A stretch of 64,000 nucleotides of DNA from Candidatus Latescibacterota bacterium (GTDB lineage Bacteria > Latescibacterota > UBA2968 > UBA8231), in NCBI GenBank assembly GCA_965200315.1, contig OZ241362.1:3808001-3872000 (forward strand), in the 5' to 3' direction. Position numbers and translations under genes: made by a program. Below the pieces are notes generated by a model, which saw nothing but the letters and a program-made list of their open reading frames with translations, had not been told where the DNA came from and searched no databases. This document shows, in pieces, positions 46,951 to 64,000 of this stretch (the first letter of the stretch is position 1; the number at the start of each line of letters is the position of its first letter).

Positions 46951-47721
46951 ATGCGGATTTCGCGTCTCCTATTGGCCCTGCTACTCTCGGCACCCGTCGC
47001 CGCCGAAGAGGTCGTCGTGCCAGCCGGTCACTTCACCATGGGCATCGACCACCCGCGAGCCACCGACGAAAAGCCCAGCCGCCAAATCTATCTGAGCGCC
47101 TTTTCCATCGACCGCTACGAAGTCACCAACGCCCACTTCGCCGCCTTTGTCGCGGCCACCGGCTATCAGACGAAGGCGGAAAAACGCGGGGCTGAAAAGG
47201 CCGACGGCATTAGCTGGCGGCAGCCCCACGGCCCCGGTTCGGCAGCCGAGCCAACCCATCCGGTCGTCTATGTCAACTGGCAGGATGCCCACGCGTATTG
47301 CGCTTGGCGCGGCGGACGGCTGCCCACCGAAGCCGAGTGGGAAAAAAGTGCGCGCGGCAGCGACGGTCGCCTCTGGCCCTGGGGCACAAAGTTTGCGGCA
47401 GGACGCGCCAATCTCTGGGGCGCGGAAGACAGATACGAACAACTGGCACCAGTCGGCTCTTTTCCAGCAGGGGCCAGCCCATACGGCGCGCTCGACATGG
47501 CCGGCAACGTATGGGAGTGGTGCGCCGACTGGTACGACGCCAACTACTATGCCACCGGCCCGACCAAAGACCCGCAAGGGCCAGAGACGGGCCGCTTCAA
47601 GGTCTTGCGCGGCGGCTCGTGGATCAACCCAGCACCGGTCCTGCGCAGCATCAATCGCTTCGAGGTTTTGCCCGTAGAGCGCAGCCCCTATATCGGTTTC
47701 CGCTGCGCCCGCTCTCCATGA
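46951..47721 (+). CDS. Secreted FGE-sulfatase-fold (SUMF1/EgtB/PvdO family) protein
   Basis: Signal peptide; EVTN, PVV.V.W, RLPTEAEWEK, DMAGNVWEW, RGGSW, GFRC. Confidence 0.9.
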   Translation: MRISRLLLALLLSAPVAAEEVVVPAGHFTMGIDHPRATDEKPSRQIYLSAFSIDRYEVTNAHFAAFVAATGYQTKAEKRGAEKADGISWRQPHGPGSAAEPTHPVVYVNWQDAHAYCAWRGGRLPTEAEWEKSARGSDGRLWPWGTKFAAGRANLWGAEDRYEQLAPVGSFPAGASPYGALDMAGNVWEWCADWYDANYYATGPTKDPQGPETGRFKVLRGGSWINPAPVLRSINRFEVLPVERSPYIGFRCARSP

Positions 47722-49358
47722 CCCTGCTTACCGCACTCTGCGTCGCGCTTCTGGCCGCGTGCGACGCGCCCCCACCAAACCTCACCTCCGTCCGCTTCAC
47801 CGACGTTACCGCAGCGTGCGGCTTGGATTTCCGCATGTACTCGGGCAGCCGAGTCAAAAACTACATCATTGAGGCCAAGGGCGGCGGTGGTGCCTTCCTC
47901 GACTACGACGGCGATGGCTGGCTCGACATCTACTTGGTCAACGGCTCGCGCCTCGAAGGCTATCCCAACCCGACCGCGGCCCCGACCAACGCCCTCTACC
48001 GCAACATGGGCGACGGCACCTTCACGAACCATACCCGCACAGCCGGGGTCGGCGATGCAGGTTGGGGCATGGGCTGCGCAGCGGCCGACTACGACGGGGA
48101 TGGAGACCTCGATCTCTACGTGACCAATTACGGCCCCAACATCCTCTATCGGAACGAAGGCAACGGCCGATTCCGCGACGTCGGCCCGGCCGCAGGCGTC
48201 GCCCTAGCAGGATGGAGCACGGGTGCCAGCTTCGGCGACTACGATGGCGATGGCGATCCAGACCTCTACGTGGCCCAGTACTTGCACTTTGCGCCCGAGC
48301 GCGTTCCGCCTCGCGGCGGGATGTGGAAGGGCGTTCTCGTGTTCGCCGGCCCGCTCGGCCTCCTTGGGGCGCAGGATGTCCTCTACCGCAACGAAGGCGA
48401 TGGCACCTTTCGCAATGTCACCCGCCAAGCTCACCTCGAGCAAGCAGAGCCGACCTACGGACTCGGTGCCCTTTTTTGCGACTACGACCAAGACGGCGAC
48501 CCAGACCTCTACGTGGCCAATGACTCGGCACCCAATTTTCTCTACCGCAACGAAGGCAACGGCCAATTCCGCGACGTCGGCGTGGAAGCCGGAGCCGCCC
48601 TCAGCGCCGAGGGAGGCGCACAGGCTGGCATGGGCATCGCCTATGGGGATTACGACCGCGACGGGTTTGGAGATTTTCTGGTGACTCATTTTGAGGACGA
48701 TTACAACACCCTCTATCGCAATCGCAGCGATGGGACCTTTGCCGTGGCTAGCGCCACCGTTGGCCTCGCCGAGCCGAGCCTGCCGCACTTATCCTTCGGC
48801 ACGTTCTTTTTCGATTACGACAACGATCAAGACCAAGACCTGTTTGTGGCCAACGGCCACGTCTATCCCCAGATCAGGCACCTTGCGCCCGATGGCTACG
48901 CCGAACCCAACCAACTCTTCGCCAATCAGGGCCCAACCGGCGCCTACCGCTTCTCAGAAGTCGCAGCCGGAGATGTGAGCCGCCCCGCCGTCAGCCGCGG
49001 TGCCGCCAAAGGGGACTACGACAACGATGGGGACGTAGATGTTTTGGTCTTCAACCTCGACGGTCCGCCGCAACTTTTGCGCAACGACGGCGGCAATCAG
49101 CGCAACTGGCTGAGCCTGCGCTTGGTCGGCGGTGGTCTAGGGGCGAAAGTCGCCAGCGCCAGCGGCGGGGTCGAGCAGGTCGCGGAGATCGTCAGCGGCG
49201 GCAGCTTCCTCTCGCACAGCGACGGGCGCGTCCACTTTGGTCTGGGCTCCAATCAGGCAGCCGATTGGCTCGAGATTCGCTGGCCCTCGGGTCGCGTCCA
49301 GCGCTTCGAGAACGTGGCCGCGAATCAGTTTTTAGTGGTGGAAGAGCCGAGGCGCTAG
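47718..49358 (+). CDS. CRTAC1/ASPIC-UnbV family lipoprotein with FG-GAP repeats
   Basis: Lipobox LAAC; repeated D.D.DG..DLYV.N..LYRN.G.G.F; C-terminal HFGLG..IRWPSG. Confidence 0.88.
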   Translation: MTLLTALCVALLAACDAPPPNLTSVRFTDVTAACGLDFRMYSGSRVKNYIIEAKGGGGAFLDYDGDGWLDIYLVNGSRLEGYPNPTAAPTNALYRNMGDGTFTNHTRTAGVGDAGWGMGCAAADYDGDGDLDLYVTNYGPNILYRNEGNGRFRDVGPAAGVALAGWSTGASFGDYDGDGDPDLYVAQYLHFAPERVPPRGGMWKGVLVFAGPLGLLGAQDVLYRNEGDGTFRNVTRQAHLEQAEPTYGLGALFCDYDQDGDPDLYVANDSAPNFLYRNEGNGQFRDVGVEAGAALSAEGGAQAGMGIAYGDYDRDGFGDFLVTHFEDDYNTLYRNRSDGTFAVASATVGLAEPSLPHLSFGTFFFDYDNDQDQDLFVANGHVYPQIRHLAPDGYAEPNQLFANQGPTGAYRFSEVAAGDVSRPAVSRGAAKGDYDNDGDVDVLVFNLDGPPQLLRNDGGNQRNWLSLRLVGGGLGAKVASASGGVEQVAEIVSGGSFLSHSDGRVHFGLGSNQAADWLEIRWPSGRVQRFENVAANQFLVVEEPRR

Positions 49359-49363
49359 CGGTC

Positions 49364-51193
49364 TCATCGATCTCGCTCCAATCGCGCCAACTGTTGTCGT
49401 GCCTCGGCGTGATCGGGGTCGTGTTGCAAGGCGCTGGCAAAAGCGCCCCGAGCCTCGTCCGCTGAACCATGGCGCACCAACAGCAAGCCCTGCCTATAAA
49501 GAGCTTCCACGTCGCTGGGATCTAGCTCAACACACGCCTGCAAGCTGCGCCAAGCTGGGCGCGGCTGCCCCAATTGCAGATACGCCAGGCCGAGCAAATA
49601 GTAGCTGTCGCGGTGATCGGGGTCGCTGGCCAAGGCGCGCTGGCTGGCAATCACCGCGGCCTGCGGATCGCCAGCTTGGTACGCTACCTTGGCTAGGCCG
49701 TGATGCGCTCGCACGGAAGTAGAATCCGCGCCAAGCGCTTGGGCAAAGAAATGGCGCGCAGAGTCTGGCTGGCCGCTGGCTGCGTACGCCTCGCCTAATA
49801 GACAGTGAATCTCCAGATGACCTGGAGCCAGCGTGCGCGCGCGTTTGAGGACCGAGACGCCTTGGGAGAGTGCATCTTGATACAGATAGACCATGCCCAA
49901 GCGAATGTGCGCCAGTACGTGAGAGGAGTCAGCCGCCACCGCTTGGGCCAGCAGAGTAGCTGCGCGATCCCAAGAGCCGCGATTGGCATTGCGCAGCCCC
50001 TCTTTGTAGTGGCGATCGGCCGCACTTAGCCGCTGGAACTCGGCCGCGGCTGCCGCAGCTTGATCCGGCTGGCCCACCTGCGCGTATGCCAAGCTCAATA
50101 GATAACAGATGCTGTGATCGGCCGGATTTAACTGAAGAGCACGTTCCAAGGCAACGACTGCTTCGGGATGACGCTGCTCCTTGGTATAGACGCCGGCCAA
50201 ATCGACGAGGGCCGCTGCGTTCTTCGGCTCCAAGGCCAAGACCCTTTTAAGCCCGGTCTCAGCCGCAGCCAAATCGCCGCTGCGGGCGAGCAAGTCGCTA
50301 CGCCGGTACAAGGCTTTGGCATGGTCGGGTTGTAGTGTGAGCACCGCACCGTACGCGGTCAAAGCCCCCTCAAAGTCCGCCAAAGATCGACGTACCTCTC
50401 CGAGGCGAAAGTGGTAGTGGGGCTGGTCCGCACTCCGTTCAATGGCCCGCTGAAAACAAACTGCCGCGCCCTCGTACTGGTGCTGCATCTGCAAGGCGGT
50501 GCCTAATGAGTAGTGAAAGTCGGCCTTTTCCGGCGCTAGGGCTACGGCCCGTTCAAACGCGGATGCGGCCCGTTCGTTTTCATCCAAGCGGGCATGGGCC
50601 AACCCCATATAGAAGTGCGTCTGTGCGAGGTCTGGAGCATGCGCGGCCGCTCGTTCCAGCACGGCGAGGGCCTTGCGGTGGCGGCCTTGCTTGAGCAACG
50701 CTCCCCCGCGCTGACTCAACAGGCCCCCCCACTGCTGGCCCTTGTGCACCAGCAATGAATCTGGCAACGCCCGTTCCAGCGGATCGGGATAGACGCGCAC
50801 CTCGTGGCCGCGCCGTTCTCGCAAGCTCGCCAACAAAGCCCCGCGCTCGCCCTTCATTAGGGCGGCTGGGTACTGATTTTGGTAATAAGCGCGGATCTCT
50901 TCTGTGGCTAGCTCGGTGCTGTCCAAGCCCTGAGCACGGGCCTCCGCCAGCAATAAATAGCGATCTATGATGAGCTGGAGGTATTGGCGTCTAACCGCTG
51001 CCGCATCTTGGGCTCGGACTGCATCCAATAGGCTGAGGGCTTCGGCTGGAAGCTGTGCAACGTAAGTGCGCAACGCGTCGGCCTCAATCCGGTGCGGACC
51101 AAGCTCGGCGACGACGGGTGCGTCGGCCGGCTTACACGCTGGCAGCAGGCCGGCCCAAACGACCCACCACAGCGCACCCCTTCCCCAGTGCAT
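49364..51193 (-). CDS. TPR lipoprotein with SurA/PrsA-like N-terminal segment
   Basis: LLPAC lipobox; VVAELG..LLLAEARAQGLD; more than ten TPR repeats. Confidence 0.75.
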   Translation of the reverse strand: MHWGRGALWWVVWAGLLPACKPADAPVVAELGPHRIEADALRTYVAQLPAEALSLLDAVRAQDAAAVRRQYLQLIIDRYLLLAEARAQGLDSTELATEEIRAYYQNQYPAALMKGERGALLASLRERRGHEVRVYPDPLERALPDSLLVHKGQQWGGLLSQRGGALLKQGRHRKALAVLERAAAHAPDLAQTHFYMGLAHARLDENERAASAFERAVALAPEKADFHYSLGTALQMQHQYEGAAVCFQRAIERSADQPHYHFRLGEVRRSLADFEGALTAYGAVLTLQPDHAKALYRRSDLLARSGDLAAAETGLKRVLALEPKNAAALVDLAGVYTKEQRHPEAVVALERALQLNPADHSICYLLSLAYAQVGQPDQAAAAAAEFQRLSAADRHYKEGLRNANRGSWDRAATLLAQAVAADSSHVLAHIRLGMVYLYQDALSQGVSVLKRARTLAPGHLEIHCLLGEAYAASGQPDSARHFFAQALGADSTSVRAHHGLAKVAYQAGDPQAAVIASQRALASDPDHRDSYYLLGLAYLQLGQPRPAWRSLQACVELDPSDVEALYRQGLLLVRHGSADEARGAFASALQHDPDHAEARQQLARLERDR

Positions 51194-51198
51194 CTGAA

Positions 51199-53331
51199 TC
51201 AATAGACGAGCGAGATAGTGCCGACCCGGCTCGCGGTCTCTGCGTCCGTATCCAGTGAGATGCGGTAGATATAGTGGCCCGGAGGCACCGGCTGACCCGC
51301 ATCGTCGCGGCCATCCCACACGGGCACGGCTGCACCGCGGTCGAACAAGCCTCGAATCGCGCTTAGGTGCTTTAGCCGGCGCACCGGACGGCCAGCCAGA
51401 TCGTAGATGCCAACAATCAGATCGCGCTGCACCGACACATCGTGTAACTGAAAACGAAATTCGGCCGCGTCGTTGAGGCCATCGCCGTTGGGGGTAAATG
51501 GATTGGGCGCGACGCGAACTTGCGCGAGTGGATTCGCGCCCAATTCGTCGGTGCGCACCCCAAGGGAATTGCCCGGAAAGTCGATGTTTGCGTCCCCGGG
51601 GGCAATGAGTTGTTTGACGCCGTCGCTCTCGCTGTCGAAGACCCAGCCTTGGAATTGGGTTCCATAGCGCACCACGTGGGTAGCGAACTCTACCTCAATG
51701 AGCTTGAACGTGTCGCTCGTGCCCGCCAGCTTGGGCAGGGCCACGACGATGCGGTCGTCGAGAATTTCGACCGGAAAGTCGCTGCCCAAGGCGACGCCAT
51801 CAACGCGCACGGCATGCACGGCCTCGGCGCGGGTCAGCGTGAAAATTTCCAGCCGATCAAAGCCCGTGTCGCTCGGATCAAAGGTTGGGCGCACGCTATA
51901 AGTGAAGTCCGTGCTCTCGCTGCGCGAGACGTCCTGAGGCCAGATCTCCCCGACGACCTCTAAAGCGGCTGGCGGTGCGAACTGAATCTCCAACTCGCGC
52001 AGCGCACCGGCTTGGTACAGGCTCGATAAGAAGATGACCTGAATTTGCAAATAGCGCTCGGGGCCGGGCGAGAGAATGGGAGTGCCGTCCACCCACGCTG
52101 ACACCTCTGCGGTAGAATCGCGCTGACCGGCCGTCAGCGCGTAGGGAGCCGACCAGAAACTCCAGTTTTCTTCGTCGAGGGTCGTAAAGCGCACGGACAA
52201 ATCGGCGCGTTCAAACTCCTTGCGGATTAGCTGCGTCGGCTCGCCTTCTATGTTGCTCGGCACCCAGTACAAATTGGGGTCTGGATCGCGGCCCGAGCGA
52301 GTGCGAATAATCACACTAGACCCCTCCTCAAACGCGCCGTCCCAGCGGATCTTGCCCCACGCCATGGGCGTACCAAAGTCGAGCACGGCCGTGGTGTACA
52401 CGGCGCGTTCGACAAAGCCCTCGCCGAAGATCTCGAGTTCGGCGATTTCCCAGTTTTCAATCGGGTTGAGCGGGCGCACAGCCACCCACTGGAATTGCTG
52501 GGTTGGGAAGCGGACATCGACGATTGGGTCCAAATTTTCGGTTTCCCTGCTCAGCGTAATCAGCCGCGGGTCGTTGGGCGGGTCCACGCGACGGCTGCTT
52601 ATCCGGGTGAACCAGCGGTTCGAGGGAGTGCTCAGATAGCAGTGAGAAGCAAAGTTGTTGAAGCTGTTGGCCGCCGAGACCTCGTACCACGGCAGAAAGT
52701 TCTCGGTAAAATCCTCCTCGGCCAAGTTTTCCTTGGCCAAGCGCGGCTCTCCCATCACCTCGAGCAGTTCGTCGATTTTGGGGTTGGCAGTGCCCAGCCG
52801 CGGGTAGAAGCGGATCCGATTGATAGGATAGTTGACGCCTAGTTCGACAATCGAATTCTGGACGTACAACCGACTCTGGATCCCGCTGCTTTCGCTGGTG
52901 CTGACGTTGAAAAACGCCGCCGTGTTGGGATCGCCATCGAACATGGGCGCAACCTGCACCAATTGGGTGGAGATGTCGCTGCAGCTCCCGCTGGTGGTGA
53001 TGTTGTTGGAAATGCCGCGGGCAATGCGCGTGCGGACATCGGGATGCGCTAAGTTCAAGTCTGGCGGCACGAAAAACGGGCGCATCCACTGCCCATTGTC
53101 CGCATCGACGATCTCGTTGAGCGTGTCTTCCCAAGTGGCGTACTCGATATTAGAAGCCACCGGTCGCATCTCGAGCGGCAGGCCCGCAGAATCGAGCACT
53201 GCGTAGTGGCCCGGCTCAAAAGACAGAGCCGTCGTCCAAGCATTACCGTCCTCGCCGCCGAGTTTGTACGCGTTGAAAGCAAGGGCCGGCGGGACAACCA
53301 GTGCGCCGAGCAAAAGACCAACAAAGAGCAT
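51199..53331 (-). CDS. Large secreted protein with C-terminal CHU_C/FlgD-Ig-like domain (paralog A)
   Basis: Signal peptide; INRIRFYPR, FGEGF, PNPFTPNGDGLND, IYDLAGR, WDGRD..G..VPPG.Y. Confidence 0.82.
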   Translation of the reverse strand: MLFVGLLLGALVVPPALAFNAYKLGGEDGNAWTTALSFEPGHYAVLDSAGLPLEMRPVASNIEYATWEDTLNEIVDADNGQWMRPFFVPPDLNLAHPDVRTRIARGISNNITTSGSCSDISTQLVQVAPMFDGDPNTAAFFNVSTSESSGIQSRLYVQNSIVELGVNYPINRIRFYPRLGTANPKIDELLEVMGEPRLAKENLAEEDFTENFLPWYEVSAANSFNNFASHCYLSTPSNRWFTRISSRRVDPPNDPRLITLSRETENLDPIVDVRFPTQQFQWVAVRPLNPIENWEIAELEIFGEGFVERAVYTTAVLDFGTPMAWGKIRWDGAFEEGSSVIIRTRSGRDPDPNLYWVPSNIEGEPTQLIRKEFERADLSVRFTTLDEENWSFWSAPYALTAGQRDSTAEVSAWVDGTPILSPGPERYLQIQVIFLSSLYQAGALRELEIQFAPPAALEVVGEIWPQDVSRSESTDFTYSVRPTFDPSDTGFDRLEIFTLTRAEAVHAVRVDGVALGSDFPVEILDDRIVVALPKLAGTSDTFKLIEVEFATHVVRYGTQFQGWVFDSESDGVKQLIAPGDANIDFPGNSLGVRTDELGANPLAQVRVAPNPFTPNGDGLNDAAEFRFQLHDVSVQRDLIVGIYDLAGRPVRRLKHLSAIRGLFDRGAAVPVWDGRDDAGQPVPPGHYIYRISLDTDAETASRVGTISLVY

Positions 53332-53455
53332 ATCCCGACCTCGACAACTTTTAAGGGGTGGGGGGCGTGAGTGCAACATACTAAAAAAAAACTCGCTATG
53401 CACTCTTTTGGCTAGGGTCTATATTAGCATGTCCATCTCTAATAGTCAGGTTTTT

Positions 53456-56134
53456 ATGCCTTATCGGCTCGTGGTGGGCATTCTCTGGGGCCTCCTAGCG
53501 CTCGGGACCGACCTGCTGGCACTCGATACCCTACGCGTGGGCAACAACGGCAACGTTTCTTGGGCCGGGCAAACCTTCGGCTCAGCCGTGCAGCCGCTCT
53601 CCGCCGAATACAAGGTCAGTCGGTTCTTCACCGAGGTCGGCAATGTACCGGGCAACGTCATCGACTTGTCCAACCTAGCGGTGGTAAGCCCCCAAGTGCT
53701 GGTCAAGACCCTCATCCAAGCACCGCCCGAATTGCTTTCCGGGGAAGTGGCCCTAGCAGAGGAAAAGCTGCTAGACGCAGTCTCGGCCCTGCCGGGAGTG
53801 ACGGCGATTACGCCTTCTCAGCGCGAGGGGCTCTCCCTGATTCGCATTGATCTTGCGGACGACATCCTTCTCGACGAGGCCGTGGCACAGGTTGCCGCCG
53901 CACTAGCGCCGGTGCGTTCGACCGGCGTTGATCCGCTCATTCTGCCGGTCTTGTTAAGCCCGGATCACGTCGTCCGCGGTGAAAACGTGGCCCTGCGCGC
54001 CCTCGGATGGGGCGGCGGCATTACGGCACCGGCCATCAAGGACGTGCCCGCATCTACTCTGGAGGAGACTCTGCTGGAGCTAATCGAGCCGGGCGGAGCC
54101 GAAGACGCGTTCGCCCGCAAGGGGGCTTTTGGGGCCTTGGGCACCTTTATCGTCCTCGATCTCGGCAGTCCCATTGGCATCAACCGAATCCGCTTCTATC
54201 CGCGCAACACCGTGCAGAACGCACCCCAATACCCCTTTCAGACGGATTTTATCCGCCAGTTCGAGTTGCTCGCCCACGACGGGCAAGAGCTCGTCTTAGA
54301 CGGCACCGGACGCCTCGTGCCCCAGCTCGACGACTTCGAGATGCTGCTGAAGACCTCGGCCAACGAAGAGTCGGTAGTAGAAGTGGTGATTGACCCCGCC
54401 GAAACCGCACGCTTTGTGCGGCTCAAATCCACGTCCTCCTTCCCCTATGAAATCGACGAGTTTGAGGTTTTCGGCGAGGGCTTTATCGGCACCAGCCGCT
54501 ACATCTCCCACGTGTACGACTTGGGTGCGCCGGCTACTTGGGGGAATATAAGTTGGCGCGAAAAAATCGTGGATTTGCGCGTCCGCAGCGATCTAACCGG
54601 ACCCGCTCCCCAAGCCAGCGCCTGCCGCATCGAATCCGCGGTGTTCATCAAGCCCGACGACATCCCAAGCGACTACGGCGACTGCGCCCCAACGTCGCGT
54701 TTTACCGATGATCAAGGCTACACCAACGTGTACGAGTGCTTCCAGACCCACTGCGGCGAGGCCGTGCTGCCGGGCCGCCAGCAAAGTGCTGAGCCAACAA
54801 CCAACGAACCCGCGCACCCGTTGGGGCGCACCAACGACGTCTCCGAGATCATCGTCCGCACTCGCACGGGGACCGATCCGACCCCGGTGCTCTACAAGCG
54901 CGGCAACGTGCAGCGCGTGTCAGACGACCAACTCGGCACCTCCATCGACTCCCCGGGCGAACAGCTCGCACGCGACGAATATCTCGATCTCGAGCCTGAT
55001 CTCGAAGCCGTACCTCCGCAGGTTTGGGGCAAGGGAGCAATCGAAGAGGACCTGCAAAACTGGAGTCCCTGGTCGTCGCCCCATCAAGGGGGGGAACGAG
55101 AGGGCGGCACACCGGTTTTATCGCCAGGGCCGCGTCGCTACATCCAGTTTTCAGTCGATTTCCGCAACAGCGAAATCAACGCCACTAAGGCACTGGAACA
55201 GCTAGCCATTGAATACTTGCTGCCGCCGATAGCCGAGGAACTCGTCGCCGAGATTTTCCCACGGGAAGTGGAGGTCTTTGAATCGGTGGATTTCACCTAT
55301 GCCGTGCGTGCTAAAATGGAGTTTGAGGGTGTCAAGGGGTTCGACACCTTTGAACTATTGACCTCTAACCGAGTGCTGGGCATCGACAAAATCGAAATCT
55401 GGGAACTCCCCGACCGACTAGTGACAGAGCAGGCCCTGAACGCCGACATCGTGACGGCTCCCAATGGTCAAGCGGCGGTCCAAACATCCGATGGCACCCA
55501 ACACGCCCTGCCCTACACGGTAGAATCCGCCGATGGCGGCTCCTTTGTCATCCAAGCGGTAACCGAGCGCAACGCGATCGTGCGCTTTCCCCAAATCACC
55601 CGGCCAGCCGATGGCGGCCAGATGCTGCTAAAAATCAAGTTCCGCGGGCGCGTACTGCTGTACAGCACCTTGTTTCGCGGGCAGGCCGTGCTCTCGTCGC
55701 AGGCCGGCAGCATCCAGCGCATCTCCGCCGGCAACGCCGACTTCTTAGGGGAAGGCGACCTGCCCACGGCCTCTGGAATCACCGTGCTGAGCCCAGACAT
55801 CACCAAGGGCGACCTGTTCGGCTCCTTTGCCATCGAACCGAGCGTGTTCACCCCCAATGGCGACGCCATAAACGACGCCGCGACCATCGGCTACGACATC
55901 CTCGCGGTGACCCGACCAACCTCCGTAGAAGTACAGGTCTTTGACCTGTCTGGCCGCCTCGTAAAGTCGCTCTACTCAGGAGCTGAGCTGAGCGGGCACT
56001 ACGACCACCTGTCTTGGGATGGACGCGACGCCGACGGCAACCGGGTGCCGCCGGGGCTGTACTTGGTATCGCTTTCCGTAGATGGCGACGCACGTCAGAC
56101 GCGCAGGGTGCGCACGGTAGGCGTGGCGTATTGA
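53456..56134 (+). CDS. Large secreted protein with C-terminal CHU_C/FlgD-Ig-like domain (paralog B)
   Basis: Same motif series as paralog A; FTPNGDAIND, VFDLSGR, WDGRD..G..VPPGLY. Confidence 0.82.
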   Translation: MPYRLVVGILWGLLALGTDLLALDTLRVGNNGNVSWAGQTFGSAVQPLSAEYKVSRFFTEVGNVPGNVIDLSNLAVVSPQVLVKTLIQAPPELLSGEVALAEEKLLDAVSALPGVTAITPSQREGLSLIRIDLADDILLDEAVAQVAAALAPVRSTGVDPLILPVLLSPDHVVRGENVALRALGWGGGITAPAIKDVPASTLEETLLELIEPGGAEDAFARKGAFGALGTFIVLDLGSPIGINRIRFYPRNTVQNAPQYPFQTDFIRQFELLAHDGQELVLDGTGRLVPQLDDFEMLLKTSANEESVVEVVIDPAETARFVRLKSTSSFPYEIDEFEVFGEGFIGTSRYISHVYDLGAPATWGNISWREKIVDLRVRSDLTGPAPQASACRIESAVFIKPDDIPSDYGDCAPTSRFTDDQGYTNVYECFQTHCGEAVLPGRQQSAEPTTNEPAHPLGRTNDVSEIIVRTRTGTDPTPVLYKRGNVQRVSDDQLGTSIDSPGEQLARDEYLDLEPDLEAVPPQVWGKGAIEEDLQNWSPWSSPHQGGEREGGTPVLSPGPRRYIQFSVDFRNSEINATKALEQLAIEYLLPPIAEELVAEIFPREVEVFESVDFTYAVRAKMEFEGVKGFDTFELLTSNRVLGIDKIEIWELPDRLVTEQALNADIVTAPNGQAAVQTSDGTQHALPYTVESADGGSFVIQAVTERNAIVRFPQITRPADGGQMLLKIKFRGRVLLYSTLFRGQAVLSSQAGSIQRISAGNADFLGEGDLPTASGITVLSPDITKGDLFGSFAIEPSVFTPNGDAINDAATIGYDILAVTRPTSVEVQVFDLSGRLVKSLYSGAELSGHYDHLSWDGRDADGNRVPPGLYLVSLSVDGDARQTRRVRTVGVAY

Positions 56135-56362: not shown

Positions 56363-56363
56363 T

Positions 56364-56700
56364 GTGACTACTTCGATGATTGAATTAGAAGTGCCCGATG
56401 CAAAGAGCATTGCGGTTACAGAAGCTAAACTCACCGTCGAGCTTGCAGACGGTCGCATGATCTCCGTTCCGCTAGCTTGGTACCCGCGGCTCGTCCACGC
56501 GACACCAGCCGAACGCAACAATTGGGAGTTGATCGCTGCGAACCGCCACATCCACTCGGAAGATTTGGACGAGGACATTAGCGTGGAAGGGCTGCTGGCG
56601 GGCCGTCGCTCCGGGGAGAGCGAGGCTTCGTTCAAACGCTGGCTCGAAGCGAACGGGACGGGGCGTCGCGCTCTACGAACTCGGACGTGCCAAACGCTAG
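56364..56700 (+). pseudogene. DUF2442 family gene with a probable 3' frameshift
   Basis: LADGR.ISVPLAWYPRL..AT..ER..W..DLDEDISVEGLL; shifted frame ends GRGVALYELGRAKR* at 56700. Confidence 0.7.
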
Positions 56701-58898
56701 CGCCCACTTCCCCTCAACTGCCCTTCCCACTGCTCTCTAAGCTGCTCAAAAATCTCCGCCGAGCGTCCCTCTCGGTAGTACTCTGTAAACTGCTCTAAGT
56801 GCTGCACTCCTTTGAGCGTATCTCCCAAAACCATGTACAAATGGCCGGCCAAGCGGTTGCCCTGATAGTGCTCTGGCTGAACGGCCAAAATAGCCTGCAC
56901 CTGTTCCATCGCGGCCGCAGCGCGGTGCTCGACGATATACTGGGTGGCCAATAGCAAGCGGGCATCGACCGCGTCCGAGTTGCGGGCAATCACTTGCTGC
57001 AAATGGAGCTTGGCTTCCTCGGCTTGGTTGGCAAAAAAGAGCAAGCGAGCCAAGCGGTAGCGCGCCGCAGCGTCCAGCGAATCCGCCGCTAGGATCTGCC
57101 GGTATTCGGCGCGTGCTGCATCCAAGCGTTCCAACTGCTCGTATAGCTCGCCCAATTGCAGGCGCGCCTGTAGTGAATCCGGCTTAGCAGCTACGAGCTC
57201 CTCATACGCGACCGCAGCTTGCCCCAACTGCCCCAACTGAGCGTGGGCATAACCGAGCCGCCCGTAGAGATCCGCCGCGTCCGCATCTTCGGCACTCAAC
57301 AGGCCCTCGTATGCAGTGATCGCTTCGGCATAGCGACCGGTTCGCAAATAGACGTTTCCCAGCGCCAGCCGCGCCCGCGACACTTCGGGAAAGCGGCCGA
57401 TGAATTCGCCGTATGCAGCAGTGGCCCGGTTGTACTCGCCGCTCCGGGCATACAGAGAGGCCAAGTTGAAACGCGCCCACTTGATATCCGGGTCGAGAGC
57501 CAGCGCTTGCTCATAAGCGGCCACAGCATTGATGGGCAGACCCTTTTTCTCGTACACATAGCCCAGTCGATAATGCGTCTGGGCATCGCCCTCCACATTC
57601 ATCCCTCCCACGCGAAAATTGCACGCGACCGCCAACAGAGATGCGACACCGCAACCAATGAGTAGGTCTCGGTACGCTCCCCGTCGCCCCAGCAGGTAGA
57701 GCTCCCGACCACCATACGCGGCAAATATCAGTAGGATGGGGACCACAGGCAGGCGATAGCGTGCGCTAATAAAAAAAGCCACCACCGTCAGCATGTACGC
57801 ACCGGCGAACAAGGCGAGCAACAGGGGTTCGGGGCGGCGCAGCAAGCCGCTCCGATAGCTCAAGCCCAACCCCAGCAGCGCGAGCGGTGCCAGCAGCCCA
57901 AAGGGGAAGGCCACGCCGTACTTCCAAAGCAAGACTTGCAGCAACGGCGCGTACTGGCGGGCAAAGTACAGGTCCTGATTGCGGCCAATCTCGTCGCCAT
58001 GCCAAAACAGATACAGCTTGTACAGCAGCAGCTTCAGGTAGGCAAAAGGCTGATGAAAAATAAAATCCCAAGCCTCGGCAAAGAAAAAGCGGGATTGGGC
58101 CGAAGGCTGGGTCGCGTCGGCTTCCACGCGCGGCCGCGCAGTCAATTCCAGCCACGCCGGCCCCGGCTGGATCGCCACGGTCTCGTCGTACTGGGCGTTG
58201 TTGCCAATGTAAAAATTAAGACCCGCGTTGGAAGAAATAAGCACCCAATCGCCGCCCACATAGTAGTTGCGCAAGGTGACCGGCGCGATGGCCAAAGCGG
58301 TCCCCAACAACAGCACACACACCCCCACTAGCCGGCCGCGACGCGCCCATACCAACCACAGCGCAGCCACCGGCACAAACGCCAGCACATTAGCCACACA
58401 TAGCGCGGAAAGGCCGAAGATAAACCCGGGCAGCAGAAGCCGCTGCGGCCGCCCCTGGGCCGCCCATAGCAGTGCCCATAGCGCGAGCAGGTTTAGAACC
58501 AGCGCAAGGACCGGCGGCAGCAACTCGGCCTCAAAGAAGATGAAAGGCCCATAGCAAGCGGCTAGTCCGGCCGCTAGATAGCCTACGGCGGGAGAAAAGA
58601 CGCACCCCAAGCGAAAAATCAGCAGGCACAGCGTGGCCCCCAGCGCGGCTTGGACTAACCGCGGCAGGGTAAAACTCGGCTCAAAAAGCGCGTAGAGCGC
58701 ACCGAGAAAATGCGGGTAGAGCGGAGGTTGCCAAAAGGGCTGATCGCCGAAGTGGCCGAGGGCCATAGCGGCAGCCGCTTGGGTATAGGTCTTGGCATCA
58801 ACGAGGGGAAAATCGTAGAACGGGCTGCGCTGGCTCTGGATGATGTACAATAGCCGCAGCGCAAAGGCCGCGCCCCAGATGAGCGCGAGTTTTCCCAC
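56697..58898 (-). CDS. GT-C (ArnT/PMT-like) membrane glycosyltransferase fused to TPR repeats
   Basis: LVDAKTY, QPPLYP.FL, many TM helices, RNY..NFYIGNN, RYRLP, C-terminal TPRs. Confidence 0.82.
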   Translation of the reverse strand: MGKLALIWGAAFALRLLYIIQSQRSPFYDFPLVDAKTYTQAAAAMALGHFGDQPFWQPPLYPHFLGALYALFEPSFTLPRLVQAALGATLCLLIFRLGCVFSPAVGYLAAGLAACYGPFIFFEAELLPPVLALVLNLLALWALLWAAQGRPQRLLLPGFIFGLSALCVANVLAFVPVAALWLVWARRGRLVGVCVLLLGTALAIAPVTLRNYYVGGDWVLISSNAGLNFYIGNNAQYDETVAIQPGPAWLELTARPRVEADATQPSAQSRFFFAEAWDFIFHQPFAYLKLLLYKLYLFWHGDEIGRNQDLYFARQYAPLLQVLLWKYGVAFPFGLLAPLALLGLGLSYRSGLLRRPEPLLLALFAGAYMLTVVAFFISARYRLPVVPILLIFAAYGGRELYLLGRRGAYRDLLIGCGVASLLAVACNFRVGGMNVEGDAQTHYRLGYVYEKKGLPINAVAAYEQALALDPDIKWARFNLASLYARSGEYNRATAAYGEFIGRFPEVSRARLALGNVYLRTGRYAEAITAYEGLLSAEDADAADLYGRLGYAHAQLGQLGQAAVAYEELVAAKPDSLQARLQLGELYEQLERLDAARAEYRQILAADSLDAAARYRLARLLFFANQAEEAKLHLQQVIARNSDAVDARLLLATQYIVEHRAAAAMEQVQAILAVQPEHYQGNRLAGHLYMVLGDTLKGVQHLEQFTEYYREGRSAEIFEQLREQWEGQLRGSGR

Positions 58899-58902
58899 CT
58901 CG

Positions 58903-61611
58903 CTAGATGCCCAAGCCGGCGTACACCGTTATAAAACCCTCGGTCACCGTGCGGGTTTTGATGTCTGGGTCTTCAAAGTCGCGGGCGTCGAACTTCAGGC
59001 CGACCTGCGTGGTCAGCACGTAGCCCTGATATTCGGCCACATTGGTGACTTGAGCGGCCGTGATGAAAGACTGGAAGTTATTGATCTCGGCCACCAGATC
59101 CCGAAGCAGCACGTATTCGACGCCGGTGGCTATGGTGGTGCGACGCATCACGGGCAGTTCTACTACCACGCCGAATATCTCGGTCAGCTCCTCGCGGGCG
59201 TCCTTGGTAAACAGGTCGTAGGTCTGGCGGCGGTATTCGCTTTTCCATCTCGGCAGCACCCGTAGGCGCGACAACTCGACGAGATAGTCGGCCTTGTTGA
59301 TGACGCCAAAGAAAAACTCGTCCTCGCCCAAGCCGAACTGGGTGCGCGCTGTTTGGCCGAGGCGCTGGTGCCACAGGTCGTATTTGAGCGAATTTTTAAT
59401 TGTCAAATCTTCCAGCGGTTCGTACGTATGGCCGATGTACAGCGAATTGTTGAGCGCGTCGCGCGCCAACAGCGGGTCCAGCACTTCCACATTGCGGGAG
59501 TCGCGCAAGGTGTTGCGGTTGTCCCACTGGATTAGGTTGTCAGGAATGTCGTCCTTCACGCTTTTGAGCACTTCCATGACCTTGAGCCGCCCCCAATTCG
59601 GATGGTTCACATCGACGGTCATCACGCCATATATGGCGCGGTTGCGCTGGTCTGAGGTGATCCGCTCCTCGCGCAAATGCCCGACGGTCGCGCGGATTTC
59701 TGGGGTGATATTGACGCCAGCGTACACGTTGAAGCCACTGCGGTCGCGCTTGTAGGGGAAGTCCGGCTCGTTGTCGTTTTCAAAGCGATCTACCCAGCCG
59801 TTGTTGTTGGCGTCAATGCCGTAGAGAAATTCGGGCCGATCTACGTGTTGGCGGAGGAAAGGCTCCTCGTAGTCTGGAATCAGATTGATAACGCGGCCAT
59901 TGTCGTTTTGGTTGAAATCGGGGATGAAGTCGTTGTTTTCGTCCCAACCCGGAAAGACCGCACGATCTACCGACAGGGCGTCGTTGCGGCCCCAATCCGG
60001 GGTGCGGTCTTGATCGTCGTTGTCCTCGACGAATTCCACCAAGAACCGCTCGTTGCTACCCGGGTTGTGGTCGGCAAAATAACCAGAGTTGTAATCGATA
60101 AAGCCGTCCTGCTCGCTGATGTACGTCGAAGTGGCATAATCCGGGTCCATATGAAATACCTCGGCAAAAAAGAAATACGGAGAAGCGCGCTTCCAAAGAT
60201 TGAGCATAAAAGCGTCCGCCGAGGGATTCTCGGACGTACCCGCCGAGGTACTGTGATCGGTATTGCCTTGGTCGGCACTCGGATAGGGATACTTGCGATA
60301 CGTGCGGCTGTTGTCCCACTCGCCATACAAGTGTAAGCCCTTGACATCTTCCAATGCGAGCGTGAACCCAAATATCTGCGTTGCAGTGGGCAGGCCGTAC
60401 TCAAACGACACGACCCGCAAATTGGTGTTGTCCTTGACGTTGCCTGTGGCCCGCACGACCAGTAGGAATATGGGGTCGTTGCTGCGGCCGGTTTGGCGGT
60501 TGGACGTAGCCTGCACCTTGTAGTCGTTGCCCAGCACCAAGTCGAACTGGACCTTGCGAATCTGCGACTTGTCCTGAGACGCGACTAGCAAAAAATCCGT
60601 GCTGTTGAAATCGTAGCGCAGGCGGATTTGCTCATTGCCGTCGGCCGAGATAAACCCTTCCTGCGGGAAACCGCCTTCGACGACCGGTTCAAACCCAATT
60701 TCCTTGCCGCGGTCCACGCTGCCGTCCAAATAGGTGATGATGATATCCGAGCCGGCACTAAAAAACGCCGCGCCACCCTCGCCATCGGCCGGCGAGTCGT
60801 CGCTGAGCAAAATTTCAATCCAAGAGATGGCTTCGTTCTTTTGGTCCACGGTCAATTCGCCCGTGAGGGGATTGCCGCCAAAGCCGTCGGTGAGCGTATT
60901 CGACTGGTGTGCGTTGACGAAGTTGAACCCCAACGTGGTAAAATCTCCCACTTGAACGGTGGTGCGCCCCCCCATCAGCGAGGTGTTGTTGGTGCGGTTG
61001 ATGCCCTCGACATTCGTGCCTGAGCCACCCGATTCGCTCAGCCGCGAATACAGAAAGGTGAGCAAGTATTTGTCCGTAGCTAAGTCGAACTGGACCCCGT
61101 CAAAATCGGGCTTGGAAAAAGTCATGGGCGTCAGGGTCGTGCGGATGCCGTTGCCAATGGTGAGGGCGTAGTGGTATTCGCCGATGGAGTCCGAAGCGAT
61201 CAGCAGGCTGTTAAACCAAGTGCCAAAACGGGCGTCCTTGAACAGCTCGTTGCCGCGCTGCAAGGGCTGGCTCTGGCTATTGTTGTAAATGAGCCAACCG
61301 CGATTGACGAAATTGCCGAAGAAGTCGTAGAAGTAGCTGCCTTCCAACGCCACATCGACGTAGCGCTGGTACTGCGTCCGTGCGTAATTGGAATACTCCC
61401 ACTGCCGCCAGCGGTACTCGTTGAAGAGCTCCTGCGGGATGTACCACTTTTTTACGGCCGGGTCTATCGCATCGAAGAGAACGCCCGACCCCTGTGGCTC
61501 GAACGTGGTCCTGCCGCCGCGCTGAACGCCCAGCCGATTGCCGTAGTCCTGGGCACTGGCCGCGGCGGCGAGGAGGCATAACAAAGACGCAAGAAAAAAA
61601 GGTGATCTCAT
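58903..61611 (-). CDS. Large hypothetical exported / outer-membrane protein with Ca-binding-like DxNxD repeats
   Basis: 902 aa; signal peptide; DENND, DANNNG, DNDDQD motifs; amphipathic beta-strands at the C-terminus. Confidence 0.75.
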   Translation of the reverse strand: MRSPFFLASLLCLLAAAASAQDYGNRLGVQRGGRTTFEPQGSGVLFDAIDPAVKKWYIPQELFNEYRWRQWEYSNYARTQYQRYVDVALEGSYFYDFFGNFVNRGWLIYNNSQSQPLQRGNELFKDARFGTWFNSLLIASDSIGEYHYALTIGNGIRTTLTPMTFSKPDFDGVQFDLATDKYLLTFLYSRLSESGGSGTNVEGINRTNNTSLMGGRTTVQVGDFTTLGFNFVNAHQSNTLTDGFGGNPLTGELTVDQKNEAISWIEILLSDDSPADGEGGAAFFSAGSDIIITYLDGSVDRGKEIGFEPVVEGGFPQEGFISADGNEQIRLRYDFNSTDFLLVASQDKSQIRKVQFDLVLGNDYKVQATSNRQTGRSNDPIFLLVVRATGNVKDNTNLRVVSFEYGLPTATQIFGFTLALEDVKGLHLYGEWDNSRTYRKYPYPSADQGNTDHSTSAGTSENPSADAFMLNLWKRASPYFFFAEVFHMDPDYATSTYISEQDGFIDYNSGYFADHNPGSNERFLVEFVEDNDDQDRTPDWGRNDALSVDRAVFPGWDENNDFIPDFNQNDNGRVINLIPDYEEPFLRQHVDRPEFLYGIDANNNGWVDRFENDNEPDFPYKRDRSGFNVYAGVNITPEIRATVGHLREERITSDQRNRAIYGVMTVDVNHPNWGRLKVMEVLKSVKDDIPDNLIQWDNRNTLRDSRNVEVLDPLLARDALNNSLYIGHTYEPLEDLTIKNSLKYDLWHQRLGQTARTQFGLGEDEFFFGVINKADYLVELSRLRVLPRWKSEYRRQTYDLFTKDAREELTEIFGVVVELPVMRRTTIATGVEYVLLRDLVAEINNFQSFITAAQVTNVAEYQGYVLTTQVGLKFDARDFEDPDIKTRTVTEGFITVYAGLGI

Positions 61612-61790
61612 ACTAGGCTCCTTGTCTGCGAATCTGTAGGCTGAGGAGTTTGGGAGAAGTCAACAACCTTAAACCCGTGCTCCTGCTCTCTCTGTCGCAA
61701 CGCTATCGCCAAGCGATCAAGATCATATTCAAATTGCCGAGCCAGTGCGTCTTTTGCTTTCCATACGTCTTCGATTATTTCATCTTTCAT
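61608..61790 (-). CDS. Small PIN-associated (antitoxin-like) protein
   Basis: MKDEIIEDVWKAKDALARQFEYDLDRL; directly after the PIN remnant. Confidence 0.6.
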   Translation of the reverse strand: MKDEIIEDVWKAKDALARQFEYDLDRLAIALRQREQEHGFKVVDFSQTPQPTDSQTRSLV

Positions 61791-62056
61791 CTAACCGTCT
61801 CCCATGAGTTCTTGCGAAGTGCAGATCTCTGGATAGTAATGACTATACAGCATACAAAGTTCACGGATACTTGGTTTGAAGTTCCAAGTCATAAGATAAT
61901 CGCTCCGATGAACAGCAGAGCGCGCAATATGAAGCGCATCATCTATTGCTTTTTCCGCTAAAGGGCCTTCGTTTATCATTCTGCGAGCTAACCCAACCGC
62001 AGAATCTGTTGTTGCGAGTATAGGTATTCCCTCAAGGAAGTTTCGTCGCCGAATCT
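61791..62056 (-). pseudogene. PIN-domain (VapC-like) toxin remnant
   Basis: ..DALHIA.SAVH..DYLMTWNFK..PEICT.QEL; N-terminus absent and the segment after WNFK deleted. Confidence 0.68.
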
Positions 62057-62139
62057 AATCCTTTGCTTTAATTCAGCGGCCGCTGAAGGTAGACAGCATC
62101 TGGACCATCACGAAACGCGGGATTTTAAGAGGCTTTCAT

Positions 62140-62175
62140 AAAAATAAGGCGATGGGCTTGACTAGCCCATCGCCT
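62140..62175 (-). terminator. Intrinsic terminator
   Basis: AGGCGATGGGCT/AGCCCATCGCCT stem followed by TATTTTT on the minus strand. Confidence 0.8.
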
Positions 62176-62213
62176 GTAAATCTAAACCGAATGCCGGGTC
62201 GAGCCAGCAGGAC

Positions 62214-63119
62214 CTAGCGATTAAACTCGGTCTTGATGCGGCCCCAAGTGCTGGATTCAACGGCTGTGGAAGAAGCGGCTCCCCAGTCAATGGCGTCGTC
62301 GAGCTCGCTCATGACCATGTCGTTGTCCGCGCGGCAGCATTTGTTGGGCGAAGTTGACCAAAAACCTTGGTAGTCTTCAAGTACAGAGCCGCCTTCAATG
62401 TCGAAGTCGCCGAAGGTCCAGCTAATGGCGATGATCTGGCCTTCTTCGAGGTCGGTCTCCTCAGCAGCGTCCCGGTCGCCATCGTCGGGAATGAAGTCAA
62501 AGGGCCGGATCCAAGCCTCGTATAAATACGTGCTCTCGCCGAACTCTTCCCCTTCAAACGTGTACGCGAATTTCCAAGCATCGTTGTTGTCTGGATCGAG
62601 GACCCAATCAAACGGGGGATTGTAACCGCCCCACGCGCCAGCCGTCGGCGGCATGGACCAGTTGTATCCCACCTTGAGGATGCCGCCTTCTTGGCCGGGG
62701 GCATAGCCACCGCCGCCCTCAACCTCGGGGTGGGTCGGCGACACATAGACTTCCCAAGCGTCGTCGGACCACCAAGCATTCGGCTCTTCAGCGTCGCGGG
62801 TGTGGACGTTATCGAACACTTCGGCCATGAAATAGAGCAAGTTGGTGTTGTCGTTCCAGCCGACAATCTGCCGTACGCTCAGGTCGCTTACGTCGATCTC
62901 ACCGCGCGCCTTGCTGTACACCGAATCCGAGTACTTGTCGTTGCCGACTTCGTAGGGAATCTGAGGCACAGCAGCCCAATCGGCGTGATTACCGTCAATG
63001 ACCGGTATGTTTTCATCTGGGAACTGCACGGCGAACAGGAGTTCGCCAGGCGGAAAGTGAGCCAGAGCCGGTAGCGCAACCACCGCGGCGAGTAAGGCAC
63101 TTACTAACATTTGGCGCAT
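62214..63119 (-). CDS. Secreted acidic CBM9/DOMON-like protein with C-terminal TWGRIK motif
   Basis: AAGGAG RBS, signal peptide; PVIDG..DW, VGWN..LY...V.D, DAWE; ends AVESSTWGRIKTEFNR. Confidence 0.72.
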   Translation of the reverse strand: MRQMLVSALLAAVVALPALAHFPPGELLFAVQFPDENIPVIDGNHADWAAVPQIPYEVGNDKYSDSVYSKARGEIDVSDLSVRQIVGWNDNTNLLYFMAEVFDNVHTRDAEEPNAWWSDDAWEVYVSPTHPEVEGGGGYAPGQEGGILKVGYNWSMPPTAGAWGGYNPPFDWVLDPDNNDAWKFAYTFEGEEFGESTYLYEAWIRPFDFIPDDGDRDAAEETDLEEGQIIAISWTFGDFDIEGGSVLEDYQGFWSTSPNKCCRADNDMVMSELDDAIDWGAASSTAVESSTWGRIKTEFNR

Positions 63120-63235
63120 CTCTATCTCCTTGTGAAAGAGGGCATAAGAAAACGAGCTCTTGGGCATAGCAAGGCTCAAGATACTTCCAACAACATTGAA
63201 AGTCAATATCCTTGCGCCGTTGGGGGCCGCGATTC

Positions 63236-64000
63236 CTACCGCTGTCCCAGCATCTGACGAATGCGCTCGGCCTCGCGGTGCGCTGGGTCGAGACGCAGCA
63301 AGGTCGTCCAAGCAGCCGCCATTTCCTCGCGGCGTTGCTGGCGGCGGTATAGCTCGCCCAAGCGGTAATACGCCTTGGTCGCTTCGGGATTCAACGCCAC
63401 GAGCGCTGTGTATTGCCGGATGGCGTCTTCTGTGCGGCCGACGCGCTCGTAGGCACGGCCTAAGTTGTAGTAAGCTCTCAGATGGTTCGGCACCAAATTC
63501 AGTACCTTACCATAGTGTCCTATAGCCTCCTCGTAGCACCCAGTTTTCTGATAGGTTAGGCCGAGGTTGAAGTGCGTTTCAACGTGGGTGGGATTCAGGG
63601 CCAGTGAGGTTTTGAAGGACGCGATAGCCTCCTCGTAGCGCCGCGCCGCACTGTGCAGGATGCCGAGATTGAAATGTGCTCGCAGCCGAGTCGGCTGGAT
63701 GGCCACGGCCCGCTGATAGTGGCGGAAAGCGCGGGCGTATTGCTTCTGCTGATAGTACGCAAACGCGAGATTGTCGTGGGCGCGGGCGTTGTCTGGATAA
63801 TGAGTCAAAACCGCGGCAAACAAGCGGGCGTCGCTGTGCCAATCTCGGTTGCGGACGATGGTACGCGCACCACACAGCACAACCGCGACCAGCACGACCG
63901 CCCAAATCAGGCGTCGCTGTCCCGGACTTCTCCGCAGATAGCACTGCCCAGCCCACCCCCAAGTCAAGGCCACCGGAATCATGGCCAAGTGCAGATAGCG
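63236..64000 (-). CDS. TMTC-like membrane protein with TPR repeats (3' part; runs off the window)
   Basis: RYLHL, RTIVRNRDW, followed by TPR repeats. Confidence 0.75.
   Translation of the reverse strand, partial: RYLHLAMIPVALTWGWAGQCYLRRSPGQRRLIWAVVLVAVVLCGARTIVRNRDWHSDARLFAAVLTHYPDNARAHDNLAFAYYQQKQYARAFRHYQRAVAIQPTRLRAHFNLGILHSAARRYEEAIASFKTSLALNPTHVETHFNLGLTYQKTGCYEEAIGHYGKVLNLVPNHLRAYYNLGRAYERVGRTEDAIRQYTALVALNPEATKAYYRLGELYRRQQRREEMAAAWTTLLRLDPAHREAERIRQMLGQR

Follow-up and report, generated by a model that had tools for sequence, protein, structure and literature searches.

A multiplied Latescibacterota gene cassette with a predicted very large outer-membrane barrel and T9SS-tailed lectin-like proteins, and its possible part in surface glycan capture

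The question raised by the last part of a 64,000-nucleotide stretch of Latescibacterota DNA (the window; contig OZ241362.1 of assembly GCA_965200315.1, positions 3,808,001–3,872,000 of the forward strand) is what a cell does with a run of genes for an acidic protein of 902 residues, large surface proteins with secretion tails, a carbohydrate-binding-like protein, membrane glycosyltransferases and chaperone-like lipoproteins. These genes occupy positions 46951–64000 of the window, which is part of a single-contig genome of 5.36 Mb and 94.7% completeness. Latescibacterota occur widely, are uncultured and figure in published work as degraders of polysaccharides. A first-pass annotation, made from the letters alone, had proposed one dedicated module for export, glycosylation and display, with the 902-residue protein (hereafter OM902) as its barrel or anchor; open reading frame (ORF) listing and profile searches over 46951–64000 confirmed every gene that it had listed, in its place. 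The locus is one of 28 paralogous cassettes in the genome rather than a single dedicated one, and the likely role of the cassette is to capture sugars, or to display them, on the cell surface. We put at roughly 40% the chance that it does so as a glycan-capture module of the Sus type, fed by type IX secretion (the T9SS) and built round a new barrel, that passes glycans inward.

Co-occurrence of neighbouring genes had been set beforehand as the test of whether these genes belong together. A pattern scan of one genome per species gave at least 659 confirmed relatives of OM902, and neighbours were counted by tblastn within 10 kb of the best 78 of them, nearly all in Latescibacterota metagenome-assembled genomes, some labelled Gemmatimonadetes. 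Relatives of the tailed surface proteins stand at 77 of these 78 loci, followed by SurA-like (60), CBM9-like (56), GT-C (49) and DUF6785 (38) proteins. With 28 occurrences of the set in this genome, and with it again around 77 of 78 homologues elsewhere, the grouping is far beyond chance and the genes form a real conserved module. The earlier idea that all listed genes make up one module stands for this core but not for the ASPIC (30/78), FGE (6/78) and TPR lipoprotein (5/78, counted by its N-terminal part) genes, which are looser companions. The usual order at related loci is SurA-like, long tailed protein, barrel, GT-C, two tailed proteins and CBM9-like. In most loci the gene directly upstream of the barrel gene encodes a tailed protein; the GT-C gene, where present, usually comes just after the barrel gene, and the orthologous loci (L059–L067; 70–97% identity) retain the gene order of the window.

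Within the genome OM902 has 40 paralogous ORFs, 36 of them of at least 870 aa, at 24–57% identity. The paralogues of its companions number about 102 for the tailed proteins, 42 for ASPIC, 37 for DUF6785, 25 for SurA-like and 17–19 for CBM9-like. The 28 cassettes, defined from a simple greedy gene call and each holding an OM902 gene, span 507 kb, or 9.5% of the genome. Tailed proteins are found in 27 of them, SurA-like in 20, CBM9-like in 19, GT-C and ASPIC in 14 each, and DUF6785 in 13. Four other cassettes hold most families of the window (CBM9-like, two tailed proteins of ~700 aa and one of ~1050 aa, barrel and GT-C), three of the four with a SurA-like gene as well. The cassette of the window itself goes on past the window end with the rest of a second GT-C gene, a SurA-like lipoprotein with a double peptidyl-prolyl isomerase (PPIase) domain (554 aa), a third tailed protein (1077 aa) and then a DUF6785/DUF6784 membrane protein (650 aa; L048:5994–7946).

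Across the phylum, the OM902 profile matches 95 of 151 genomes, including 63/63 in the window's own family and 13/13 in family f10, and none of 30 and of 19 genomes in the sister families f2 and f3, respectively. SprA, the T9SS translocon protein, was found in 56 of 61 genomes, among them 16/16 of f2 and 3/3 of f3. Because SprA is present in f2 and f3, where the barrel is absent, the cassette is an accessory to a phylum-wide T9SS and lies outside its core. The lectin body of the tailed proteins without the tail (alignment A4) matches 17 of 41 genomes; at E 1e-15 or better it has 0/8 in f2 and 0/9 in f10. In G006, a genome of f10, the tailed, CBM9-like and GT-C genes have weaker relatives beside the barrel in two of three loci. 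At 20–90 cassettes per genome, natural pairs of the barrel with its upstream tailed protein, or with the CBM9-like protein, run to thousands.

The barrel gene is at 58903–61611 on the minus strand, and its product has a pI of 4.67. OM902 has no Pfam match and no NCBIfam match at E 0.01 or better, and its family profile retrieved nothing from the PDB sequences at E up to 1. An AlphaFold2 model built from a 40-sequence alignment (predicted local distance difference test, pLDDT, 74.7; predicted TM-score 0.72) has long antiparallel strands, about 25–28 as counted from the strand list, and an inserted beta domain at residues ~264–390. Two conserved parts are poorly modelled, with pLDDT below 50: residues 16–68, in the conserved N-terminal 80 residues, and residues 540–576, in an acidic Asp/Asn-rich block (residues 528–620; 59752–60030, minus strand) into which most invariant columns of the alignment fall. 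A motif search located an EF-hand-like loop, DANNNGWVDRFE, at residues 600–611 inside this block. The fold matches, from Foldseek and from a Foldseek-independent search, are outer-membrane barrels only: MtrB, Deinococcus SlpA, LptD, TonB-dependent transporters, FimD and porins. MtrB (6r2q_B) was the best by Foldseek (E 2.8e-11), Deinococcus SlpA/SDBC (7zgx_A) had a Foldseek E of 1.5e-9 and the best VIA score (Z 13.3 over 423 aa), and LptD chains were at about E 1e-6. None of the matches stands out as a relative, porins and LptD scoring nearly alike. The predicted model and the barrel-only matches support the earlier proposal of a barrel: OM902 models as a very large outer-membrane beta-barrel of no known family.

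Named families were considered for OM902, and it matched none of the following by sequence. DUF6029, the nearest named Atlas cluster (0.89), matches another gene and no OM902 locus, and DUF5916 matches two other genes of the genome and again no OM902 locus. PorP/SprF has no match to OM902 in NCBIfam at E 0.01 or better, nor in Pfam, and its model TIGR03519 is silent throughout the genome and equally so in the control genomes. A complex prediction of OM902 residues 21–902 with the C-terminal 52 residues of the CBM9-like protein scored 0.00 (mark 0.32), a value that counts neither for nor against binding.

A distant subfamily of OM902 (24–28% identity) was noticed in runs of two or three barrel genes at genome positions 3932286–3949809, 1359597–1372807 and 4837433–4856219. 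In two of the three regions a TPR protein of 1080–1090 aa and two ExbD genes lie beside the barrels. A DUF4159 protein is encoded in the first region; the third has members of that family and of the TPR family. These regions hold the only link seen between the OM902 family and an energy-coupling system.

Tailed surface protein A (51199–53331, minus strand; 710 aa from its likely start) and its paralogue B (53429–56134, plus strand) share 30% identity over 448 residues (E 3e-42), and both end in FTPNGD..ND...WDGRD. The Pfam model CHU_C, with a cut-off of 27, gives 31.7 bits for A, 27.7 for B and 42.8 for the third paralogue of 1077 aa, and FlgD_ig gives 18.3 bits for A and 36.2 for B. The NCBIfam models for T9SS sorting domains stay under their cut-offs, type B (TIGR04131) with 22.4 bits for A and 20.9 for B against 35 and type A (TIGR04183) with 17.5 against 23. 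The AlphaFold2 model of protein A (pLDDT 78.2) consists of a small N-terminal domain, a CBM32-like domain, Ig/Fn3-like domains and a C-terminal domain of T9SS type. In this predicted model residues ~90–305 match the CBM32 module 4zxe_A with Z 14.7 (root-mean-square deviation, rmsd, 2.4 over 128 aa), and many galactose- and fucose-binding CBM32 modules follow at Z 11–14; the SusE-like protein BT2857 matches the model at Z 10.7. Since protein A has no CBM32 match in Pfam at E 0.01 or better, the CBM32 assignment is one of fold only. Residues 599–711 superimpose on the C-terminal domain of PorU (6za2_B) with Z 12.2, rmsd 2.5 and 23% identity over 99 aa, and PorZ (5m11) matches the same domain at Z 10.3, so that the reading of these tails as T9SS C-terminal domains is supported at the level of fold. 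No catalytic domain was seen in the model of protein A by fold searches, and the tailed proteins model as non-catalytic, lectin-like surface proteins.

The T9SS core genes that the first-pass annotation had proposed to look for are present in part. SprA (622 bits) and PorU (615 bits) are encoded elsewhere in the genome than the window, and a PorV-like gene adjoins PorU (149.8 bits, under the cut-off of 250); GldK is represented only by FGE-domain matches under cut-off, and GldL and GldM were not found by profile searches that lacked a positive control in a genome 94.7% complete. For the same two reasons the negatives for PorP/SprF, GldL and GldM are weak ones. The notion that the locus has an export system of its own did not hold up, given that SprA, PorU and the PorV-like gene lie elsewhere and that SprA occurs in the barrel-free sister families as well. 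The PorU and PorV-like genes are adjacent at genome positions 1598517–1602835, as they are in Bacteroidota, and at least 50 other genes of the genome end in a domain like the C-terminal domain of PorU.

The small exported protein encoded at 62214–63119 on the minus strand (301 aa from its likely start) scores 21.1 bits with CBM9_1 (E 3e-4), under the cut-off of 23.4. A tail-bearing paralogue reaches 41.4 bits, and a profile of 21 CBM9-like paralogues matches the CBM9 structure 1i82 with E 1.5e-4 over ~65 residues. A CBM9 link of this family is therefore supported at the level of profiles. The protein ends in TWGRIKTEFNR, after a linker, within a conserved C-terminal tail, TAVESSTWGRIKTEFNR (62217–62267, minus strand), with the consensus TAVExx[ST]WGxIKxxF. 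Of 40 matches to [ST]WG.[IVLM]K in the proteome, 38 are at most 12 residues from a C-terminus. They are carried by the CBM9-like family, by a related protein family, f9, by a single FGE protein and by some 15 further small exported proteins; 21 of the 38 are inside cassettes and 17 elsewhere in the genome. The tail is kept in 18 of 21 aligned CBM9-like paralogues, the other three having a PKD-like domain instead. Those three are at genome positions 2915260–2916330, 655279–656343 and 5060573–5061667.

At the DNA level 79 of 151 genomes of the phylum have the tail pattern, in as many as 71 copies in one genome; the reversed-pattern control occurs in none, and the tail pattern is confined to families that also have OM902. 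Family f10 has the barrel without the tail pattern, and some barrel-rich genomes hold only two copies of it, so that the tail travels with the cassette system but the barrel does not require it. Its look is that of a tag for docking or sorting.

A 9.9-kb stretch of the locus was sampled as words, and 58–82% of these occur in each of four metatranscriptome runs from one study. Contigs from these RNA libraries cover almost the whole locus at a word depth of 2–18, and in all four runs the depth over the CBM9-like gene is 178–470. The deep contigs over this gene (window 62118–63385) stop near 63130, just upstream of the start codon. In these four runs the contigs over the CBM9-like gene are 10–100 times deeper than those over the rest of the locus. 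They hint that its RNA is abundant; the data are contigs with one depth figure each, which is a weak measure of expression (DNA carry-over and related strains may contribute), they give neither the ends of transcripts nor their levels reliably, and low or zero cover does not mean silence.

The remaining core members are membrane proteins and lipoproteins. The first GT-C protein (56697–58898, minus strand) is encoded directly downstream of the barrel gene and is a polytopic protein with about 10–12 hydrophobic segments and a C-terminal TPR part. Of the second (580 aa), the TPR end, recognised by TPR families, is encoded at 63236–64000 (minus strand) and the rest past the window end. PMT_2, with a cut-off of 26.1, gives 32.5 bits for the first and 40.6 for the second, the latter in the part past the window end, and on these profile matches both are members of the GT-C glycosyltransferase family. 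The DUF6785/DUF6784 protein is polytopic, with about 10 hydrophobic segments, and DUF6785 has no match among the PDB sequences. In one largely archaeal Atlas cluster 11% of the members also carry the OPT oligopeptide-transporter family, a weak lead by which DUF6785 may be a divergent OPT-type permease.

What surrounds the cassettes was sampled with 75 of the 78 otherwise unlabelled, non-TPR proteins of at least 180 aa within or adjoining the 28 cassettes; the three left out are large, two of them TPR proteins and the third DUF4175-like. Many of the 75 are transporters or enzymes of sugar catabolism. Recurrent neighbours are five PhyH dioxygenases, four MR_MLE dehydratases of the enolase superfamily, three amidohydrolases, three GDSL esterases and two sulfatases, and a lactonase, an FGGY sugar kinase and a 3-keto-disaccharide hydrolase occur once each. 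Transporters are represented by SSF, MFS, SBP_bac_5 and an ABC permease. Four more proteins have FlgD_ig tails, and about 30 belong to no family. Two further families of cassette proteins, f7 and f9, have no significant Pfam match. Beside one cassette, at genome positions 2070503–2073931, is a protein of 1142 aa that combines ThuA, glucose/sorbosone dehydrogenase, PKD and CBM6 domains with a Por_Secre_tail of type A; it is a candidate secreted sugar-oxidising enzyme.

On the reading that we prefer, that of glycan capture with passage inward, the core of the cassette consists of a ~900-aa barrel, two or three tailed lectins, a CBM9-like protein, a SurA-like PPIase lipoprotein, a GT-C/TPR enzyme and often a DUF6785/DUF6784 protein. 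All of these parts would be exported by Sec, signal peptides or lipoboxes being visible in the sequences. The tailed lectins would cross the outer membrane by the single T9SS translocon of the genome (SprA, PorV-like, PorU) and remain on the surface, placed at or close to the barrel, which would be their platform and probably a conduit. Captured glycans or glycoconjugates would pass to the DUF6785-type permease and on to the products of the flanking sugar and sugar-acid catabolic genes, while the SurA-like and TPR lipoproteins may aid assembly and the GT-C enzymes may glycosylate cassette proteins in the periplasm. It would work as a Sus-type unit that lacks SusC and SusD, diversified into about 28 specificities. 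Sponge Latescibacteria of the class UBA2968 are reported to be enriched in glycoside hydrolases (PMC8163846), which we count in favour of this reading.

The model for such a module is the Sus system with its polysaccharide utilisation loci, which likewise has a multiplied cassette, one big barrel, non-catalytic multi-domain binding proteins (cf. the match to BT2857) and catabolic and transporter genes nearby. The differences are that OM902 has neither a Plug nor a TonB-dependent receptor signature and that the binding proteins are T9SS-tailed instead of being lipoproteins. Moreover, the cassette is not a classic polysaccharide utilisation locus, because none of the 75 scanned neighbours matches a glycoside hydrolase family.

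That last result also weighs against glycan import, and it is not alone. OM902 lacks Plug and TonB_dep_Rec matches in Pfam, all 15 Plug-bearing TonB-dependent receptors of the genome lie away from the OM902 loci, and no energy source for import is evident save the ExbD genes beside the distant subfamily. A transport function cannot be read from a modelled barrel fold alone, and the link of DUF6785 to OPT is no more than a lead. In f10 the neighbours of OM902 (three loci of G006) are mixed, with metal transporters, an esterase and a GH141-like protein, and the domain boundaries used here come from predicted models with pLDDT of 75–78.

In its boldest form the proposal would be a new uptake architecture: lectins delivered by T9SS and a CBM9-like protein, docked by the 15-residue tag TAVExxSWGxIKxxF, would feed a plug-less barrel of ~26 strands, which would bind calcium through a conserved acidic loop and be coupled to a DUF6785 permease. 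It would be a third solution to glycan import beside porins and the TonB-dependent SusCD, with dozens of specificities, and we consider it rather unlikely as a whole. Non-specific porins were assumed for substrate uptake in the 2015 genome analysis of Latescibacterota (PMC4454575).

A close rival to glycan import, possible but in our judgement on the doubtful side, is that the cassette only anchors and displays: OM902 would be the functional counterpart of PorP/SprF and hold type-B-like lectins as adhesins to host matrix, particles or cells, with no import. In Bacteroidota, type B cargo binds a PorP-like barrel, the pairs being PorP with PG1035 in P. gingivalis and SprF with SprB in F. johnsoniae (PMC9143113); the analogy is also tied to PMC12618676. 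The cassette resembles these pairs in that its cargo has a C-terminal Ig-like FTPNGDG.ND domain that passes Pfam CHU_C, a barrel gene is adjacent, with a tailed gene directly upstream of it at most loci, and SprA is in the genome; the want of a catalytic domain in the lectins and of glycoside hydrolases among the neighbours fits adhesion too. No PorP/SprF-family gene was found in the genome, which would suit a replacement by OM902, but that search (TIGR03519, with silent control genomes) had no positive control. The resemblance also has its limits: OM902, at ~900 aa and roughly 25–28 strands, has three times the size of PorP/SprF and does not match that family in sequence, and with 22.4 and 20.9 bits the tails stay under the NCBIfam type B cut-off of 35. 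The cassette has two to three lectin paralogues per barrel together with CBM9-like, SurA-like, GT-C and DUF6785 genes, and it occurs in 28 copies per genome in a Latescibacterota host in which GldK, GldL and GldM were not found (weak negatives). Because the type A sortase PorU is present and the tail folds like PorU's own C-terminal domain, the lectins may equally well be attached to lipopolysaccharide. A pure anchor leaves the recurrent DUF6785 membrane protein and the catabolic neighbours unexplained, and these count against it, just as the lack of glycoside hydrolases, plug and energy coupling counts against import.

Two other explanations give the barrel a different task, and the fold matches bear on both. 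The barrel, the lectin-like proteins and the GT-C enzymes might assemble a glycosylated surface layer or sheath, comparable to Deinococcus SlpA, with the copies serving surface variation. SlpA/SDBC (7zgx_A) is indeed among the best fold matches of OM902, GT-C/TPR enzymes belong to the cassette, ~10% of the genome is invested in these families, and the very deep contigs over the CBM9-like gene in four RNA libraries would be expected of an abundant structural protein. The SlpA match is generic, however, with porins and LptD scoring nearly as well, no SLH or coiled-coil part was found with Pfam, contig depth is a poor measure of expression, and 28 divergent copies with CBM32 and CBM9 resemble a repertoire of specificities more than one lattice; we hold this explanation to be quite improbable. 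MtrB of MtrCAB, SlpA and LptD of LptD–LptE, the best fold matches, all work with partner proteins in or on the barrel, but sequence identity is 6–12% and the cassette has no cytochromes, SLH domain or Lpt genes; the likeness is one of barrel size only. Very unlikely, in turn, is a self-contained export system in which OM902 would be a secretion or usher-type pore, independent of SprA, for the neighbouring proteins or for a glycan made by the GT-C enzymes. FimD, PgaA, PelB, BcsC and SprA are among its fold matches at Z 9–11, and TPR domains and glycosyltransferases accompany the porins of synthase-dependent exopolysaccharide systems. Yet the usher and polysaccharide-porin matches are no better than those to ordinary porins, the cargo bears a T9SS-type domain in a genome with SprA, PorU and a PorV-like gene, and the cassette has no recurrent cytoplasmic glycan synthase or ATPase. 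Moreover, GT-C enzymes with TPR domains are protein- or lipid-glycosylating enzymes and not polymer exporters.

The statement that no named system has such a composition is supported: no Pfam or NCBIfam model, no sequence match to a solved structure and no paper among those searched names it. Literature on Latescibacteria with T9SS, on Latescibacter with polysaccharide utilization and on DUF6785 yielded no published description of the cassette, and it is described in neither of the available parts of PMC4454575 and PMC8163846. The CBM9-like module is also set apart from known CBM9 contexts, the CBM9-2 of T. maritima Xyn10A (1i82) and fusions of CBM9_1 with DUF5916, by being a separate protein with a conserved tail. 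CBM9-like domains may occur fused to the outer-membrane barrel DUF5916, which would be a precedent for a CBM9 that works with a barrel. Taking up about 10% of the genome, retained in most families of the phylum and organised round a barrel that belongs to no known family, the cassette probably has a central part in the dealings of these cells with their surroundings. It would be a case of T9SS cargo organised with a non-PorP barrel outside Bacteroidota, and it offers two handles for experiment, the new barrel family with its EF-hand-like loop and the short C-terminal tag.

The looser companions open the locus. An exported protein with an FGE-sulfatase domain (46951–47721, plus strand; Pfam E 2.1e-69) was tried as PorK/GldK and rejected, with 100.9 bits against the GldK cut-off of 350. 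It is followed by an ASPIC/UnbV and FG-GAP lipoprotein (47718–49358, plus strand; UnbV_ASPIC E 3.3e-21, FG-GAP_3 E 1e-57; lipobox LLAAC). The next gene (49364–51193, minus strand; lipobox LLPAC) had been called a SurA-N/TPR lipoprotein; its TPR part is strong, with families down to E 1.7e-54, but the SurA-N part is at best a weak likeness at its start (SurA_N_3, E 0.005, 17.1 bits against a cut-off of 27.2). The family of this TPR lipoprotein stands beside ASPIC genes in many cassettes of the genome.

Two small-gene insertions, noted earlier as toxin–antitoxin inserts, are present, but that identity is unsupported for either, because one is a DUF4160/DUF2442 pair and the other matches no family. 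The DUF4160/DUF2442 pair (56159–56798, plus strand; Pfam E 3.4e-15 and 2.2e-17) is outside the cassette set and forms an insert with the second tailed gene on one side and the GT-C gene on the other. The other consists of two small ORFs of 60 and 62 aa between the barrel and CBM9-like genes (61608–61979, minus strand), with no Pfam or NCBIfam match. At 56644 the RNA-library contigs of two runs have a 5-base insertion, probably strain variation. In the rest of the window the G+C content falls to 50–53% at 8001–10000, 28001–34000 and 38001–42000, against ~60–64% elsewhere, and these segments may be islands.

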